The notes under the pieces are model-generated. The model saw only the letters and a program-made list of their open reading frames with translations, did no database searches and was not told the DNA's origin. From contig JBNGBT010000001.1 of the NCBI GenBank assembly GCA_049903315.1, positions 1 through 64,000 on the forward strand: a stretch of 64,000 nucleotides of DNA, read 5' to 3'. Below, one piece after another: positions 14,185 through 46,999 of the stretch. The DNA comes from Candidatus Cloacimonadota bacterium (lineage in GTDB: Bacteria; Cloacimonadota; Cloacimonadia; JGIOTU-2). The position numbers and the translations under genes are program-made. Within the stretch, counting starts at the first letter, position 1. Each line of letters begins with the position of its first letter.

Positions 14185-16104
14185 CTACTTTTTCTCCGGT
14201 TCAATAATACAGAGAACTTCACCTTTTTTTACAGAATCTCCAGCTTTGAAATTGATTATCTTTATCACGCCGTTACATGGTGCAGCAAGGTTATTGAACA
14301 TCTTCATCGCTTCGAGAACGACTATGGTTTCCCCGGCTTTTACTTTATCTCCCACTTTCTTTCTATACTCGAATACCATACTGGGAATGGGAGCTTGCAG
14401 TGTGCCGGATCTATCTATTTCAACAGCTTTTTTCTTTTCTTTTTTAATCGGGCTTATTCTTGCGCCACGTGCATTCGGATCAGCTACTTCTACATTAAAA
14501 TATTCACCATCTACATACACATCAAATGAGCGCACATGAGCAGGTTTGTCTTTATTGGTTTTGGCAGTGAGTTCGCCTGCGAGAGCTTTCCGCAATATCT
14601 CATTTTCCTTTTCGACTTCTTCGAGAGTTTTTGGCATCACATCATGCGGAACTTCTTCAAGATCATATTTCCATTTGAGAAAGCGTTTGCCGGTCACAGG
14701 ATACAGCGCACAGATGATTTCGTCATCCAAATTCTTTGCTAATCCCTTTACCTCTTTTTTTACTTTGGGAAGTTCGGGCTCCAGCATGTCACCGGGACGA
14801 GTAGTGATTGGGGTTTCTCCGCGGGGATAACCTTTGAGGGCTTTTTTCTGAACTTTTTTATCAATGGGAAGAGTTGTCTTTCCATACAGTCCAAAGCAGA
14901 GATCTTTTACCTGTTCTGTAATTTGGGAATATTCACCCTCCTCTTCATCGAAGAGAACATTATTAACTGTTTGAATACCAATGATCTGACTCGTTGGAGT
15001 AACCAACGGAACCTGTCCGAGCTGTTTTCTCACTTTTGGCAGCGCTTCAAATACATCATCAAGCCTGTCCAAGGCATCCATCTGACGAAGCTGATTCACT
15101 AGATTGGAAAGCATCCCGCCCGGAGTTTGATGAAGGATCACATTGATATCTATGATGGCATTTTTTGTATCGTCCAGCAGGTGCCTGTATTTTGGTGTGA
15201 TCTTTTCCATTTCTTTATCGATCATAGCCAATTTTTGTATGTCAAAGCCCGTATCCCTGTTTGTTCCAAAAAGAGAAACAACGAGTGGTTCCACAGCCGG
15301 ATGAGAGGTCCGATATGCATAAGGTGCCATGCAGGTATCGATTATATCCACCCCTGCTTCAATGGCTTTGAAAAGCGCTAAATCGCCCATCCCGGAAGTA
15401 AAGTGAGTGTGCAGGTGGATTGGGATGTCTGTCTGAGCTTTTAAAGCCCTGATAAGATTGTAAACATCATAGGGTGAGATTAGACCAGCCATATCTTTGA
15501 TGCAGATCGTATCAGCACCGATTTTCTCGAGCTGCTTTGCTTTTTCCAGATAATAATCAAGATTATATGTTTCGCCGCCCATACGAGGTTCTGTGAGTGA
15601 ATAGCAGATAGTGCCCTGGAAATGTTTGTTGTTCTTTTTTATGATCTTTACTGCAGTTTCAAAATTTCTAAAATCATTCAAAGCATCAAACACACGGAAA
15701 ATATCGATCCCGTTATCGCCTGCACGCTGGATGAATGCCTCTACTACATCGTCTGCATAGTTGCGGTAACCTACAATATTCTGTCCCCTGAGCAGCATCG
15801 AGAAAGGAGTTTTCTTAATGTATTTTTTTAGTGTTCTGATCCTTTCCCATGGATCTTCATTTAAGAATCTGTGCATGGTATCAAATGTTGCTCCACCCCA
15901 CATTTCCATGGAATAGAACCCAATCTCATCCATCATCTCAGCAACGGGAAGCATGTCCTCAGTTCTGCCGCGAGTGGCAAAAATACTCTGATGTCCATCA
16001 CGGAAACTCAGGTCTTGTATCTTTATCGGATTCTCAGCTTTTGGGCGGTTGGGCTCATAATTCATCTTTGCCATTTCCAAAATGCCATGTTTATCAAATT
16101 TCAT
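14185..16104 (-). CDS. pyruvate/oxaloacetate carboxyltransferase (5S/OadA/PycB-like) with C-terminal biotinyl domain
   Basis: RDGHQS, EMWGGATFD, IKDMAG, HLHTH, PGGMLSN and EAMKM biotin motif. Confidence 0.93.
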   Translation of the reverse strand: MKFDKHGILEMAKMNYEPNRPKAENPIKIQDLSFRDGHQSIFATRGRTEDMLPVAEMMDEIGFYSMEMWGGATFDTMHRFLNEDPWERIRTLKKYIKKTPFSMLLRGQNIVGYRNYADDVVEAFIQRAGDNGIDIFRVFDALNDFRNFETAVKIIKKNNKHFQGTICYSLTEPRMGGETYNLDYYLEKAKQLEKIGADTICIKDMAGLISPYDVYNLIRALKAQTDIPIHLHTHFTSGMGDLALFKAIEAGVDIIDTCMAPYAYRTSHPAVEPLVVSLFGTNRDTGFDIQKLAMIDKEMEKITPKYRHLLDDTKNAIIDINVILHQTPGGMLSNLVNQLRQMDALDRLDDVFEALPKVRKQLGQVPLVTPTSQIIGIQTVNNVLFDEEEGEYSQITEQVKDLCFGLYGKTTLPIDKKVQKKALKGYPRGETPITTRPGDMLEPELPKVKKEVKGLAKNLDDEIICALYPVTGKRFLKWKYDLEEVPHDVMPKTLEEVEKENEILRKALAGELTAKTNKDKPAHVRSFDVYVDGEYFNVEVADPNARGARISPIKKEKKKAVEIDRSGTLQAPIPSMVFEYRKKVGDKVKAGETIVVLEAMKMFNNLAAPCNGVIKIINFKAGDSVKKGEVLCIIEPEKK

Positions 16105-16122
16105 GTATTACTCCATTATTAT

Positions 16123-16156
16123 GCATAAGCGCAAAAGCGTACAAGCGTAATGCGTT
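16123..16156. repeat. octamer tandem array (GCATAAGC GCAAAAGC GTACAAGC GTAATGC), 3' flank of the four-helix-bundle gene
   Basis: Period-8 repeat read directly; reverse complement of the array at 16521-16552. Confidence 0.85.
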
Positions 16157-16159
16157 ATT

Positions 16160-16504
16160 CTATCTTTTTTCTTTAAAATATTTAATAAATTTCAGTAATT
16201 TTCTTCTTAGTTTTTCAACTTCTTCAAAAATTGATTCATCATTTAAAAAACCCAATTTTTCTGAAATAATCAATTGAGTCTCAAGTTCGGCTAAAGACCC
16301 GAGACTTATATAAAGAAAATGTATATATTCTTTTTCTGAATTTCTCGCAGCTCCCTCAGCAATATTTGAAGGTATAGATACAGCAGCTCTTTGCATCTGC
16401 GATGTCAAACCGAATTGCTCATCAGAGGAAAAATGAGAAGTGATATTATAAATTCTTATAACCAGTTCAATTCCTAACTTCCACACATCCAAATCTTTAT
16501 GCAT
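16160..16504 (-). CDS. four helix bundle protein (TIGR02436 / 23S rRNA IVP / bAvd-like family)
   Basis: HKDLDVWK...E.FGLTSQM.RAAVSIPSNIAEGAAR...FL.IS.GSLAELETQL family signature. Confidence 0.93.
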   Translation of the reverse strand: MHKDLDVWKLGIELVIRIYNITSHFSSDEQFGLTSQMQRAAVSIPSNIAEGAARNSEKEYIHFLYISLGSLAELETQLIISEKLGFLNDESIFEEVEKLRRKLLKFIKYFKEKR

Positions 16505-16520
16505 CGTTTACACTCTTATC

Positions 16521-16552
16521 GCTTTTACGCTTCTGCGCTTTCACGCTTTTAC
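16521..16552. repeat. octamer tandem array (GCTTTTAC GCTTCTGC GCTTTCAC GCTTTTAC), 5' flank of the four-helix-bundle gene
   Basis: Four period-8 units read directly. Confidence 0.88.
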
Positions 16553-16555
16553 TCA

Positions 16556-16720
16556 CTACCATTTCTGCTCTCTTCTCTGCACCATAATACGGTTATGCAT
16601 GATCAACTTTCTGCCTGCCATTACCCACTGATTCTTGTCCTGCTTTTTACTATCTTCCTCCTGTTTGAGGAATTGCATGACACCGGCGATGGCAGCTCGT
16701 AGTTTTCTATTCTCTTCCAT
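16556..16720 (-). CDS. small acyl-CoA carboxylase epsilon-like accessory subunit (54 aa)
   Basis: MEENRKLRAAIAGV...W..AGR pattern directly after the carboxyltransferase gene; the longer ORF call overlaps that gene. Confidence 0.7.
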   Translation of the reverse strand: MEENRKLRAAIAGVMQFLKQEEDSKKQDKNQWVMAGRKLIMHNRIMVQRREQKW

Positions 16721-16727
16721 GTCAGTA

Positions 16728-18284
16728 TTATAAGGGTATATTCCCGTGTTTTTTTGGTGGGATATTTTCTTTTTTAGTGTACAGGATTTCCAGTGCATCA
16801 ATAAGTCGAGTGCGGGTTTCTGAGGGTTGAATGACCGCATCAATATATCCACGTTCTGCTGCAATGTATGGATTGTTGAAGAGTTCTTCATACTCCTCAA
16901 TTTTTTCTTGCCTTGTTGCTTCAGGATCTTTTGATTCCTTGATCTCTTTTTTATAGCTTCCCACAATATTGACAGCTCCTGGAGCACCCATCACTGCGAT
17001 TTCTGCGGATGGCCATGCAAAAAGTGTATCAGCTCCCAGATGTTGGGAGCTCATTGCAATATAGGCACCACCATAACTTTTCCTGGTTGTAACCGTGAGC
17101 TTGGGGACAGTAGCTTCGGAATAACTCCAGAGGATCTTGGCTCCATGACGGATAACTCCGCCCCATTCCTGGTCACAACCTGGCAGATATCCCGGTACAT
17201 CTACAAAAGTGATAAGAGGAATATTGAAGGCATCGCAAAAGCGTATGAAACGTGCTATTTTATCAGAAGCATTGATATCCAAGCAACCTGCAAGTACAAG
17301 CGGTTGATTTGCAATTATACCCACTGTTTTCCCGTTCAATCGACCGAAACCTATGACTGCGTTTTGAGCAAAAAGCTCGTGAATTTCATAAAATTCTCCA
17401 TGATCAAGAATAGGATGAATGACATCCCTCATGTCGTATGCTGCTTTTGGGTCATCAGGAATTACCGTATCCAGCTCAGGGCACAACCTGCCGGGATCAT
17501 CTCCCATAAGGATCAGAGGAGGATCCTCCATATTATTGCCGGGAATATAACTCAGTAATATTTTTACCTGTTCAATCGCATCTTCGTCGCTTTCACACGC
17601 AAAATGAGCATTTCCGCTCTTTGTGCTATTCGCAACTGCACCGCCGAGATCTTCAAAAGTGGTTTCTTCTCCTGTCACAGATTTTATCACACTTGGTCCC
17701 GTGATGAACATATAACTGCTGCCTTTTACCATGAAAACAAAATCGGTCATTGCAGGTGAGTATACAGAACCGCCTGCTGTAGGTCCCATAATGAGGGATA
17801 TCTGCGGTATGACGCCGGAAGCCCTGGAGTTGCGGAAGAAAATCTCCCCATACCCTTTCAATGAATCAATTCCTTCTTCCACGCGCGCGCCGCCGGAGTC
17901 ACTCATTCCAATGATCGGCACACCTGCTTTCATGGCAAGGTCCATTGTTTTTACGATTTTTTCTGCATGTTTTTCTCCAAGGGAACCTCCGCGGCAGGTA
18001 AAATCCTGAGCGTATGCATACACCGGACGACCGTTTACCAGTCCGTAACCTGTGATTACTCCGTCAGTTGGAATTTCGGTATCCGGCATAGTGAAATTCG
18101 TGCAACGGTGCTTAACCATCATATATATTTCGCGGAATGTGCCTTCATCAAATAAAAGGTCAATGCGTTCCCGGGCAGTGAGTTTGTTTTTCTTATGCTG
18201 TGTTTCGACACGGACTTTGCCCCCCATTTCCTTTATTTTTGCTTCTTTATTTTTCAAATTTTCGATTTTTTCAGACACTTTCAT
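16728..18284 (-). CDS. acyl-CoA carboxyltransferase beta subunit (methylmalonyl-CoA carboxyltransferase 12S-like)
   Basis: LTARERI, DSGGAR, GGSVYSPAMTD, DVPGYLPG, RKSYGGAY and KKHGNIPL C-terminus. Confidence 0.95.
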   Translation of the reverse strand: MKVSEKIENLKNKEAKIKEMGGKVRVETQHKKNKLTARERIDLLFDEGTFREIYMMVKHRCTNFTMPDTEIPTDGVITGYGLVNGRPVYAYAQDFTCRGGSLGEKHAEKIVKTMDLAMKAGVPIIGMSDSGGARVEEGIDSLKGYGEIFFRNSRASGVIPQISLIMGPTAGGSVYSPAMTDFVFMVKGSSYMFITGPSVIKSVTGEETTFEDLGGAVANSTKSGNAHFACESDEDAIEQVKILLSYIPGNNMEDPPLILMGDDPGRLCPELDTVIPDDPKAAYDMRDVIHPILDHGEFYEIHELFAQNAVIGFGRLNGKTVGIIANQPLVLAGCLDINASDKIARFIRFCDAFNIPLITFVDVPGYLPGCDQEWGGVIRHGAKILWSYSEATVPKLTVTTRKSYGGAYIAMSSQHLGADTLFAWPSAEIAVMGAPGAVNIVGSYKKEIKESKDPEATRQEKIEEYEELFNNPYIAAERGYIDAVIQPSETRTRLIDALEILYTKKENIPPKKHGNIPL

Positions 18285-43229: not shown

Positions 43230-43363
43230 TTATTTCCCCAATGTTACAACAGTTATTATTGTTGATAGATATATAATTATTCTTTTTGTTTGCCATTTTC
43301 AATCCAATCCCGTAGACTTTTTTTGATTTTTACTAAAAATGGATTTAAGCGTCAAGAAAAATA

Positions 43364-43510
43364 TTAGGTATTAGGTATTGGGTATTGGGTGTAGGGTAAT
43401 GGGTGGAGAATATCAAATTTCTAATTTCTAATTTCAAATGGGTAGGGGCTGAACATGTAAATCGAAAAGCAGAAAGCAGAAAGCAAAAAGCAGGAGTCAG
43501 AAGTCAGAAT
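43364..43510. repeat. cluster of heptamer tandem tracts (TTRGGTA, AATTTCW, AGAAAGC/AGAAGTC) with a truncated GTAG-REP at 43442-43458
   Basis: Period-7 units read directly. Confidence 0.8.
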
Positions 43511-43548
43511 TATCAAATCGGTAAACGATTTTCAAAATTATATTTATA

Positions 43549-43589
43549 ATCAGCGCGAATCAGCCCAATCAGTGAGAATCTGTGTCCTA
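43549..43589. repeat. ATCWGYG tandem repeat x4 (10/9/10 spacing)
   Basis: Matches 38814-38853. Confidence 0.75.
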
Positions 43590-43695
43590 TTTTCCCTATA
43601 CAGTTTCAAATATCAAGTTTCAATTTTCAATGTCCAAAAACAGGCATTGAACCACATTTCATGACCCAATGCCTGGCACTATATTCTATAATGAA

Positions 43696-44421
43696 TTAAT
43701 CAAATGCGTTTTCTGTTTTCCACACTTCCCAGATTTTTCCCACAAGATCGGGGCTTGGTTTCAGGACCATTTTTCCGGGTTTCCAACCGGAAGGAGTTGC
43801 CTGGGTGCCTTTGCTTGCACGAACCAGCTGGAATGCCTGTACCTGCCTGATGGTTTCACTGACATTTCTGCCCACAGGCGGGGTCAGCACTTCGTAACCC
43901 TGGACAATGCCATCAGGATCAATGAGGAATCTTCCGCGTGTTTCCACACCAGCATTCTCATCATAGATGCCGTACACTGTTCCAACTTTACCGCCGGCAT
44001 CGGTCAGCATTGGGAAGGGGATACCTCCTTTTACCATCTTAGAAAGTTCATTCTCGTCCCACATTTTGTGGACGAACACACTGTCCACACTCATTGATAA
44101 AACTTCGACTCCAAGTTCCTGGAATACTGGATATTTCTCTGCGACCGCAGAGACTTCAGTAGCTCACACGAATGTGAAGTCACCCGGATAACAGCAGAGC
44201 ACAACCCATTTTCCGAGATAATCCGAAAGCTTAACGCTTATGAATTTTCCCTTGTGATAGGCAGGTGCTGTAAAATCAGGTGCTTTTCTTCCGACCATGA
44301 TCATTTTTCGTTCCTCCGTTTTTTGTGTTATTTTTTCGTCTTTTTTTTCTTCAACTTCCTCACCGACCGGACCGCCTGTTGGCCTGGCACAGCCCACGTT
44401 CATTTCTTCTGGCATGTGCAT
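43696..44421 (-). CDS. prxU: selenocysteine-containing peroxiredoxin; in-frame UGA at 44164-44166 read as Sec
   Basis: ORFs 44164..44421 and 43696..44094 are in frame; read-through gives [20 protein letters not shown], with U at the peroxidatic Cys position; SECIS-like hairpin follows. Confidence 0.93.
44136..44153 (-). promoter_or_regulatory. bacterial SECIS-like hairpin UCUCUGC-GGUC-GCAGAGA
   Basis: Perfect stem starting 11 nt 3' of the UGA, with a G-containing apical loop. Confidence 0.8.
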
Positions 44422-44528
44422 GCTCCTTTATCGATAGTTGTTATCATTAATATTTGATTTATTAAGTTAATAATTTTCATAACTGATTGTTTTAAATAAA
44501 TAGTTTCTTTAGCTGTCAAGAAAAAAAG

Positions 44529-44589
44529 AATATCCAATATTCAATAATCCATGACCAAAGTCCAAGTAGTGGCTGAACATGTTTAGCCC
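44529..44589 (+). repeat. heptamer tract + GTAG-type REP (GTAGTGGCTGAACATGTTTAGCCC)
   Basis: Family copies at 43442, 46039 and 46932. Confidence 0.85.
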
Positions 44590-44615
44590 AGAATGAAATC
44601 TAATATCGTAAATCG

Positions 44616-45956
44616 TTAATCGTTATTCGATATTTCTTCAAGTGTAGCTTCGATGAATACATCTCTTCCGGTTGCAATATCTTCGGCTGTTTCATGTACA
44701 AGGATATCCGGCATGATGGGTGCTAACTTATCCATATTCTCGACTGCTGCCTTGTAGGTTGTTCTCCCGATCGTGATGATCATCTGGGTGTTTGGAAGAC
44801 GGAGTTCAGTATCTTTACCTGCGTTGCATTTAAACGTTGCACCACTTGGTGTGCCCACAAAGGTGCCGATGTTATTGTAATCCAGAAGTGCACAAAAGTG
44901 TCCGTTCGTTGAGCCGCATCGGCCATCGATCAGCGTATAAAGATTCCCTGTAAAATGATTTTCAGCAAGAGGGATCGGATCAGCGAAATCTGCATACTTT
45001 CCATAGCGTTCTGCAAAATAGGGAACTGGTTCGCTTTCAAGGTAGGAAAGCAGGATGGTCGAGCAGAATGGATCACCGCCACTGTTACCTCTGAGATCGA
45101 GTATCAGGTTTTCGATCCCTTTATCTTTGATCTCTTTGAAGCATGAATCCATGAAATTACGGAAGTAATCCACCCGAGAATAATATGCAAAGGTGTAGAT
45201 CGTGAGGATGGCTGTGTTTTTACCTTCCATGATTTCGAATTCGAGTGGAGGATTACTGAAGTGTCGGAACACCACTTTTCTCACAGATGCATCGTCAGTG
45301 GGAGTTAGTTCTGCCGTGACAGGATCTTCGCTGTCTGGTTTGATGTAAGTTATTTCAAAGCCGTCCGGCAGTCCATACATGCTTGCATAGAATTGAGAGA
45401 AACGAGTTGAGAGTTGTGAATCGATGAAATAGGGATTCATTGCATCAGCAGGGGTGATCATTCTGAAATCGGCTATGATCGTGTCAACTGGGGTTTTATT
45501 AATCTCAATTAGAATACTTCCATCGGGTACTTCAAGGGAATCGTTATAAGTGCCTATCACAGCGAGTTGTTCATCTATGAGTTTGACGGTGAGGGGAAAC
45601 ATATTTCTGGGCTTTGTGATAAAGAATCGCCCAGGCATCCATGTGGATGTGTGCATGCATCCGATCTTGGCAGTAATGGGTGCGAGAATCTGGAAGAATT
45701 CATTCATGGTCATCTCATGATCGATCAGCGCATAGTGCGCATCAAAGAGACTGTCCATTTCTGCTTTTGAGGTGTATTCGTAAGTGCAGCAGTGTTCTTG
45801 CTCAAGGATTTCTCGGAATCTCTTGAAATCCTGCTGGAGTGCTCCGACGCTGAATGCTTGTGATGATTGAAGATTCTCGTCGGCTTGCAGCAAATTCACT
45901 GTAATGAGGAAGAAGCAGAAAAAGAAAATAAAAAATATGTATTTTATTCTTTTCAT
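44616..45956 (-). CDS. S41-family (tail-specific/tricorn-like) peptidase, exported
   Basis: Signal peptide; LILDLRGNSGG, GS..HF, VGTPSG and IMPDI motifs. Confidence 0.85.
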   Translation of the reverse strand: MKRIKYIFFIFFFCFFLITVNLLQADENLQSSQAFSVGALQQDFKRFREILEQEHCCTYEYTSKAEMDSLFDAHYALIDHEMTMNEFFQILAPITAKIGCMHTSTWMPGRFFITKPRNMFPLTVKLIDEQLAVIGTYNDSLEVPDGSILIEINKTPVDTIIADFRMITPADAMNPYFIDSQLSTRFSQFYASMYGLPDGFEITYIKPDSEDPVTAELTPTDDASVRKVVFRHFSNPPLEFEIMEGKNTAILTIYTFAYYSRVDYFRNFMDSCFKEIKDKGIENLILDLRGNSGGDPFCSTILLSYLESEPVPYFAERYGKYADFADPIPLAENHFTGNLYTLIDGRCGSTNGHFCALLDYNNIGTFVGTPSGATFKCNAGKDTELRLPNTQMIITIGRTTYKAAVENMDKLAPIMPDILVHETAEDIATGRDVFIEATLEEISNND

Positions 45957-46010
45957 GAAGTGATCCTTTTTTTTGTGATGGATTTATATGGGATTAAGAA
46001 GTCAAGGAAT

Positions 46011-46061
46011 ATAGGATTTAGGGTTTAGGGATTAGGGTGTAGTCCCTGAACATGTTCAGCC
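46011..46061 (+). repeat. heptamer tract (TTAGGGN) + GTAG-type REP (GTAGTCCCTGAACATGTTCAGCC)
   Basis: Read directly; REP core CTGAACATGTTCAG. Confidence 0.82.
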
Positions 46062-46105
46062 AGATAAAGAGATATGAAATCTTAAATCCCGATCGATATT
46101 CGTTT

Positions 46106-46426: not shown

Positions 46427-46906
46427 ATGAATGTAGAAATCTATGAAGATTATTCTATTGATGGAAACTCAGGAGCAGGGCAACTCTTTAGCGAGTATGC
46501 TCAGTCGCTTGGTTTTCCCCTTGATTTTCAGGATTTTGATAAGGAATTGGAGAATCTACCTGGTGAATATGCACCCCCTGAAGGATGTATCTTTCTCTGT
46601 AGAATACAGGATGATATTGCAGGTTGCATTGCTCTCAGAAAACTCGAGCCGGGTATTTGCGAATTAAAGAGGATGTATGTGAGAGAAGGATATCGGGGAA
46701 AGGGGATAGGGAAGATGCTTGTAGAAGAAGTGATCAGAAGAGCAAAAAAAATTGGCTACAAGAAAATGAGATTAGATACACTTCGTTCTATGAAAACTGC
46801 AATAAGAATATATGAGGAGCTTGGATTTAAGGAAATCAGCGCTTATCGTTATAATCCATTCGAAAATGCGATGTATATGGAGAGAAAACTGGAGAATATC
46901 CAATAA
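46427..46906 (+). CDS. GNAT family N-acetyltransferase
   Basis: L.FQ.F..EL..LPG.Y.PP.G, GC.ALR, CELKR.YV...RGKGIG and LDTL..M..A..IY..LGF; GGAG SD before 46427. Confidence 0.92.
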   Translation: MNVEIYEDYSIDGNSGAGQLFSEYAQSLGFPLDFQDFDKELENLPGEYAPPEGCIFLCRIQDDIAGCIALRKLEPGICELKRMYVREGYRGKGIGKMLVEEVIRRAKKIGYKKMRLDTLRSMKTAIRIYEELGFKEISAYRYNPFENAMYMERKLENIQ

Positions 46907-46955
46907 CCAATATTCAATTTCCAATGTCCAAGTAGCGGCTGAACATGTTCAGCCC
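46895..46955 (+). repeat. heptamer tract (AATDDCC x5) + GTAG-type REP (GTAGCGGCTGAACATGTTCAGCCC), overlapping the GNAT stop codon
   Basis: Read directly; perfect palindrome GGCTGAACATGTTCAGCC. Confidence 0.88.
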
Positions 46956-46999
46956 ATTAGAAAATATGAAATAACTAAACAATTTTTTTCATGCAATCA

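Follow-up and report, generated by a model that had tools for sequence, protein, structure and literature searches.

The stretch at 16123-16552 of the window (the whole 64,000 nucleotides of Candidatus Cloacimonadota DNA analyzed here) is an instance of a widespread repeat-armed cassette, in which a four-helix-bundle gene of the TIGR02436 family stands between two arrays of short tandem units that are complementary to each other. We found no description of a repeat-armed TIGR02436 cassette outside rRNA in the literature, supplements and most subscription journals aside (including the available parts of PMC5524665, PMC10053308, PMC10910872, and 10.1101/2024.02.27.582315). As to its nature, we give slightly less than an even chance to a DNA insert that lacks a transposase, would be moved by host or borrowed enzymes, and encodes a protein, pentameric by prediction, that would bind the arms of its own cassette. 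The locus is composed as follows:

14185..16104, minus strand: downstream host gene, a biotin-carrying carboxyltransferase of the OadA / pyruvate carboxylase B type, with its GGAG outside the arms (profile match)
16123..16153, minus strand: right arm, rich in pyrimidines and free of stops in the mRNA sense, with four units that complement those of the left arm (sequence, fold)
16160..16504, minus strand: four-helix-bundle gene, TIGR02436 / PF05635, 114 aa, Avd-like fold (profile match, structure model, dN/dS 0.09-0.17)
16505..16520, minus strand: spacer from the left arm to the start codon, with a weak candidate ribosome-binding site, partly paired in the predicted fold (sequence, fold)
16521..16552, minus strand: left arm, four period-8 units, purine-rich in the mRNA sense (sequence reading)
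16556..16720, minus strand: upstream host gene, a conserved 54-aa ORF of the carboxylase operon, whose stop is the insertion point (genome comparison)
16728..18284, minus strand: host gene, a carboxyl transferase (PF01039, MmdA-like) with which the compared junction set begins (profile match)

Re-reading of the sequence bore out the initial annotation in its letters and coordinates, in the two period-8 arrays, and in the flanking stops, GGAG, and ATG. The left arm (16552-16521) begins directly 3' of the upstream stops TAG TGA (16558-16553) and contributes extra stop triplets in two of three frames, and the right arm (16153-16123) terminates 8 nt ahead of the GGAG of the next gene (16114-16111; ATG at 16104). 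Deletion of 16123-16552 in silico yields a normal junction, as had been proposed, with 18 nt left past the stops, a size that fits the plain junctions of relatives. The arms can pair in any of four registers at 8-nt spacing (15/17, 19/21, 20/24, and 13/15), and their duplex, which at -40.6 kcal/mol is more stable than that of any of 2000 dinucleotide shuffles (-24.5 +/- 3.4), agrees with the claim of a stem of about 30 bp. The minimum-energy fold does close the ORF, with about 31 pairs, while the fold of the whole 481 nt, with a z of only -2.2, is modestly unusual. Left-arm bases pair with the right arm at a mean probability of 0.64 as RNA and 0.56 as DNA. The ORF is indeed richer in A+T than its neighbors (GC 0.30 vs. 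0.42-0.44; third positions 0.21 vs. 0.39-0.41). In the cassette region, promoter-like matches are at chance level, no terminator was found, and there is no Rfam match at E up to 1. The 54-aa ORF upstream (16556-16720) has no Pfam or NCBIfam match in a profile search; it lies between two carboxylase subunits, 62 genomes out of 201 from the phylum have a match to it, and it is possibly a small subunit of the complex.

To our knowledge, the TIGR02436 proteins, for which two structures have been solved, have neither an assigned function nor a catalytic role. The 114-aa protein of the window matches TIGR02436 (E 2e-36, 124.5 bits vs. a cut-off of 24) and PF05635 (E 8e-37, 126.1 bits vs. 33.8), and its structure model (four helices, pLDDT 94) superimposes on 2GSC with a TM of 0.93 and also matches 2RLD, each of these entries having five chains. 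The family has been described as a homopentamer (PMC4990558), and the window protein is likewise predicted to be pentameric. The model also resembles Avd, the accessory protein of diversity-generating retroelements (DGR), with a TM of 0.79 to 4DWL and of 0.71-0.72 to Avd in DGR complexes, at 12% identity, and the Avd pentamer has been described as binding an RNA stem-loop with all five protomers in contact (10.1101/2023.10.23.563531). This likeness suggests one alternative, a non-autonomous retroelement, in which an Avd-like pentamer would hand the RNA of the cassette to a reverse transcriptase from another locus, whose cDNA product would enter transcribed junctions. The orientation of the cassettes along their operons agrees with such a route, as do PF00078 matches in the genomes with 26 and 21 copies and their absence from those with 10, 4, and 3, in a comparison of five genomes only. 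However, IS capture accounts for the many copies in those two genomes, genome G000 (96% complete) has no reverse transcriptase (PF00078) match, none of these enzymes is found beside the closest copies inspected, and the protein, besides its low identity to Avd, is not strongly basic (K+R 15, D+E 17 over 113 residues). We consider this alternative very unlikely.

The history of the insert is best read at its own junction, in a survey of 70 genomes with both flanking genes, out of 72 fetched (L158, perhaps a duplicate, was not counted, and two genomes, G152 and G159, are incomplete). Intact genes are present in 14 genomes, and broken ones in 3 (one full-length with a break, two with an internal deletion). 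Five junctions hold arms only, with both arms in G002, G004, G189, and G203 and the left arm alone in G162; two (G005 and G007) hold about one unit; at least 27 are plain, consisting of a stop, up to 33 nt, and a start; and the remainder either contain different inserts or defied parsing. The empty orthologous site suggested by the in-silico deletion is therefore present in relatives, at the predicted size, and the gene is not vertically conserved here without arrays, the junction being filled, empty, or decayed among them. The pristine junction of G120, of genus g48, places the insertion between the stop codon and the few bases that precede the ribosome-binding site, and its comparison by eye with the filled junctions of G163, G191, and G131 reveals no target-site duplication, which in an old insert may have eroded. 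G163 and G191 carry a second gene lineage with different period-8 arms at the identical junction, G070 carries a relative one junction upstream, and G147 and G037 carry arm pairs of other units, with no gene, in the same operon. Nucleotidyltransferase-like genes (named by translation) and REP-like elements have also entered the junction that follows the 54-aa ORF (L280 in G070, L369 in G132, and L368 in G169), which is thus an insertion hot spot.

On the operon tree, the near-empty alleles of the window's genus branch off from among filled ones; they are therefore losses, and their break is close to the base of the stem. Those of G005 and G007 are separate on this tree, yet the cassettes of these two genomes at another site are close, so that one or two losses may be counted. 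Since, moreover, the four intact congener copies at the window junction form one clade (in a quick protein tree of 127 columns), the window copy is an old insert that has been repeatedly lost and gutted. The copy at this site is common to four genera in two families, and the nearest proteins outside the junction (63-70%) are found at unrelated junctions, in other families and in one Calditrichaceae record, each between period-8 arms. The best match from a named genome has the operon as well, which makes a Cloacimonadota host likely.

Purifying selection acts on the gene, with a dN/dS of 0.09-0.17 (11 of 13 pairs computable). The initial view of a mobile element is to be corrected accordingly: this copy is an old and long-resident one. 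In genus g48, third positions differ by 0.09-0.29 in the cassette versus 0.26-0.43 in the flanking genes, in 15 of 15 pairs, which hints at lateral replacement at the same site, with A+T-rich codons explaining a part of the difference; no gradient of co-conversion into the flanks is seen in this genus, and the low divergence of the cassette is absent from genera g1 and g33 (0.15-0.40 vs. 0.19-0.43). Of alignment A3, rows G096 and G131, which ran in the wrong orientation, were disregarded. As to excision, no joint at the cassette ends was found in the DNA contigs of 8 runs, weak evidence given that contigs drop rare variants. The proposal of a mobile or excisable element with no transposase of its own holds up in that the cassette is inserted, losable, and transposase-free; an excision driven by the protein finds no support in these contigs.

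The build of the window locus recurs across the family. All 11 congener genomes carry between 3 and 26 matches (119 in total), of which 96 loci were analyzed, 83 with full-length copies and 76 with complete flanks, at 41 site clusters, a lower bound since clusters 1, 3, and 14 join neighboring unrelated copies. Enrichment of complementary flanking arrays, expected under the initial annotation, is strong: with complementary flanks defined by an ungapped inverted-match score of at least 12, they are present in 48 of 76 congener copies versus 31 of 2216 control ORFs of G000 (4 of the 31 belonging to the TIGR02436 family), and swapped congener flank pairs reach this score in 57 of 901. Among 80 named genomes of many phyla, 73 of them usable, the figure is 50/73 versus 12/432 for swapped flanks, and viral contigs gave 26 usable, distinct loci, 19 of them positive. 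The compared genomes are kin, so that these counts overstate independence. Both-side arrays could be called at 89 of 168 loci and share their period in 87 (7 in 63, 8 in 23, and 6 in 1). Left and right units differ by at most one letter in 55 of these 87, versus 160 of 4412 non-cognate pairs, and there are 48 different units among the 55 well-matched loci, the unit changing from locus to locus. Units are common to proteins above approximately 60% identity, and below that they are no closer than chance. Arms of 4-5 units are found on the two sides in 58/87 and 64/87, a mode set in part by the threshold, which drops two-unit arrays; we infer that this number, together with the tracking of the protein by the unit, fits one unit per subunit. 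GxxExxY genes that lie at gene junctions between short inverted flanks possibly follow a parallel cassette design (G000:C33:94855-95244 and G000:C44:153701-154048), the inverted flanks of this group in G000 being weak, with a score of 12.5 in 2 of 6 copies. Short genes separated by repeated elements are also found at G000:C44:216137-219522, the repeated elements presumably resembling integron cassette sites.

The arms are also ordered with respect to the host operon. Throughout the family the left arm is G-rich and the right arm C-rich in the mRNA sense, the left array starts between -25 and +11 nt from the upstream stop in 41 of 57 loci, and the neighbors are co-oriented with the gene in 56 of 69. 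A stop triplet is found in 48 of 66 distinct units versus 38.0 +/- 3.1 expected (P 0.0014), and a period of 7 or 8 shifts this triplet through the reading frames. Both the position at the stop codon and the co-orientation can be explained by selection after random insertion.

Such arms, co-oriented and able to pair, also raise the possibility of an mRNA version of the rRNA intervening sequence (IVS), in which the two arms would form a stem in the transcript, and RNase III would remove the ORF with no religation and so leave the operon message in two pieces. The build is that of the Coxiella IVS, whose 28-bp terminal stem is described as cut by RNase III (PMC4990558). The enzyme is encoded in G000, the stem is predicted at the pairing probability given above, and the GGAG of the next gene lies outside the stem. 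However, no excess of G.U is seen, with G.T at 101 versus A.C at 116 over four sets (47/74, 13/10, 18/13, and 23/19), a test that register slippage blurs. Moreover, 7 of 7 genomes with congener site 0 encode the N-terminus of the downstream gene (ThiD-like by translation) in the right arm, which lies in frame behind the start codon; and in 24 of 59 loci no stop interrupts the downstream frame within the right array, so that a cut there would harm the downstream message. Cleavage of the transcript also leaves the tandem units and the mobility unexplained. An RNA stem recognized by RNase III, as the initial annotation had considered, is in this way not supported by the mismatch types as a general role, and it is contradicted where the right arm is coding; we judge such a role quite unlikely. 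Cleavage may nevertheless occur as a side effect and, RNase III being encoded in G000, may occur at the window site in particular.

If the window copy is old, recent moves have to be sought in other congener copies. Near-identical copies are found at many sites in G009, G001, G005, and G007, the matching sites being empty in G000, and these copies sit between outer terminal repeats with 8-bp duplications. One group, family A, has imperfect terminal repeats, which we take to be ISL3-like, with perfect 8-bp duplications at 6 of 15 paired ends plus L057, and its members with broken ORFs still show perfect duplications; 36 of its ends are present in G009 and none in G000, and a search of 5 genomes for a helper transposase gave no PF01610 match. 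It is MITE-like, with imperfect 28-bp ends around intact or broken genes (L071, L082, L116, L117, L124, and L127, in G009 and G001). In a second group, family B, the 8-bp duplication is perfect in L106 and has one mismatch in L104 and L109, and the right end is shared with an IS256 Zn-variant transposase element (L138:1-1514, G008), which has a decayed arm pair in its left region, upstream of the transposase, and is the likely parent of this non-autonomous family. Both families, with terminal repeats, an 8-bp duplication, and no transposase of their own, accord with mobile insertion cassettes or MITEs. As the copies with broken ORFs keep perfect duplications, the recent congener spread is hitch-hiking on IS ends, for which the gene is not needed in cis, and every clearly recent move observed is explained by IS ends with 8-bp duplications. 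Short palindromic elements have themselves inserted in four-helix-bundle genes and arms (L113 in G001, with a GIY-YIG-like ORF named from translation, and L108, L109, L115, and L007), an identical palindrome being present in both arms of L105 and L108 and in one arm of L102.

All of this could also describe a passive passenger, possibly a small regulator useful to its host, with arms that are its own control sites, carried about by IS ends and gene transfer and later deprived of these ends. Both families speak for it, family A by its duplications around intact and broken genes alike and its presence in G009 as opposed to G000, and family B by its link to a transposase; so does a dN/dS of about 0.1 at long-held sites. 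On the other hand, no IS-type terminal repeats were found outside the cargo at the four scanned copies of the window site (site 2), and an outer repeat with duplication has any candidate at 9 of 83 loci, in a strict scan whose blanks are weak, as it also missed the true family A ends, which were found by pattern search. The arms reach up to the stop codon or into it, so that ends would find no room; the IS-free members are basal to the IS-borne clade (in the same quick tree of 127 columns), so that the cassette had to enter an IS first; and frequent loss and unrelated neighbors speak against a needed host function. We view the passenger as unlikely, less so than the cut transcript.

Remains of arms appear to be scattered more widely. 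In G000, 31 period-7/8 arrays are found versus 1 in a shuffle, 6 of them in the window, where the arms of the cassette itself fall below the threshold of the scan. All six tracts match arms of other congener subfamilies over 16-37 nt; they are located at the ends of genes, in stacks next to a short palindrome with 19 copies in the genome, and may be arm debris. The orphan tracts noticed in the initial annotation thus exist, and its suggestion that they are scars of this very cassette fails, since they match the arms of other subfamilies and the window copy's own unit is found away from the cassette 7 times, versus 3.4 +/- 1.9 expected and 8 in the largest shuffle. Stacks of different 7-mer tracts at 43362-43640, 44520-44640, 45990-46090, and 46895-46960 of the window are possibly a chimeric REP-like family formed from arm debris. 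Among these stacks, at 43696-44421, lies a peroxiredoxin-like gene split by an in-frame TGA near 44164-44166, at a CxxU-like position, which is likely a selenoprotein.

Published heptamer repeats may belong here as well. The intergenic repeats GGGAATC and GGGGA(C/T)T have been described as four-unit arrays after stops and as convergent pairs, with no gene named (PMC4692102), and TAACTGA is another unexplained intergenic heptamer repeat (PMC4679880). With the cassette arms they share 7-nt units, mostly in four copies, a G-rich strand just past the stops, and frequent convergent pairs, and units similar to them serve as arms at L191 and L250; they differ in that the terms "helix bundle" and "S23" are absent from the available parts of both papers. 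In metagenomes, GGGAATC arrays have the gene nearby in 3 of 120 cases, and 25 have a convergent partner within 150 nt; in the one case inspected, at L432, the array is approximately 280 nt upstream of the gene. We treat the link of the heptamer-repeat families to cassette arms as a lead.

Under the reading that we prefer, a transposase-free DNA insert, the protein would bind its arm units, about one per subunit, and would hold the two arms together as DNA, as duplex sites or as a fold-back strand, and by doing so might help host recombination or repair to copy the unit into gene junctions. With many stops in the left arm and none in the right, an insertion there would be nearly silent for the operon, loss would be ordinary hairpin-promoted deletion that leaves both arms, one arm, or one unit, and long-range spread would also use IS ends. 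The filled, empty, and decayed alleles, the two lineages at one junction, and the lack of a visible target duplication speak for this scheme. Against it, the IS-free copies could be old IS-borne inserts with eroded ends, the copy at the window site is old and its tree follows the site, and a dN/dS near 0.1 fits a gene useful to the host equally well. We entertain more tentatively, and with some doubt, a larger scheme of an enzyme-free mobile class across bacterial phyla, in which an Avd-like pentamer ring would read a co-evolving arm code of 7-8 bases and drive insertion at stop junctions and replacement of residents, gene-less remains would be the source of heptamer families, and the rRNA IVS would be a special case. 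Whichever applies, the cassette supplies a concrete candidate ligand for TIGR02436 proteins, the cognate arm unit, with a built-in control of specificity, and a single junction offers natural filled, empty, and decayed alleles. If the larger scheme is true, a ring protein with many natural repeat specificities represents a new recognition code, and the heptamer link provides an origin for 7-base repeat families left unexplained in the published papers.

In the foldback transposons of Drosophila, short tandem units likewise build up long inverted ends, and the loop between these can include a gene; those elements belong to eukaryotes, are far longer, duplicate their target, and depend on a transposase. 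The class of mobile insertion cassettes, MITEs, and transporter IS (PMC3129680) resembles the cassettes in lacking a transposase of its own and in carrying a passenger gene, and the congener families A and B fit in it. The window copy, in contrast, has no outer terminal repeat and no visible duplication, the ends of its family not being conserved in sequence, and it is not an IS-ended cassette at this site. The DGR accessory protein Avd (4DWL; 10.1101/2023.10.23.563531) shares the four-helix fold, at the TM of 0.79, and is a pentamer that binds structured nucleic acid, whereas the window gene, only 12% identical to it, has carboxylase genes for neighbors and no adjacent reverse transcriptase, template repeat, or variable repeat. 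The closest build is that of the S23p IVS in Coxiella 23S rRNA, which, according to PMC4990558, has the same protein family, about 430 nt, A+T-richness, approximately 30 bp of terminal complementarity around the ORF, and a sporadic distribution. RNase III excision of the kind known there is unlikely for cassettes whose arm is coding. The Coxiella IVS lies in rRNA and the window cassette lies between protein genes, and because of this the latter has the build of an ORF-bearing IVS and is not a member of that class. Window-type cassettes differ further in having arms made of tandem 7-8-mers with a locus-specific unit and in occurring in many copies per genome, and the ORF, described as decaying in Coxiella (PMC4990558), is under purifying selection in the window cassette.
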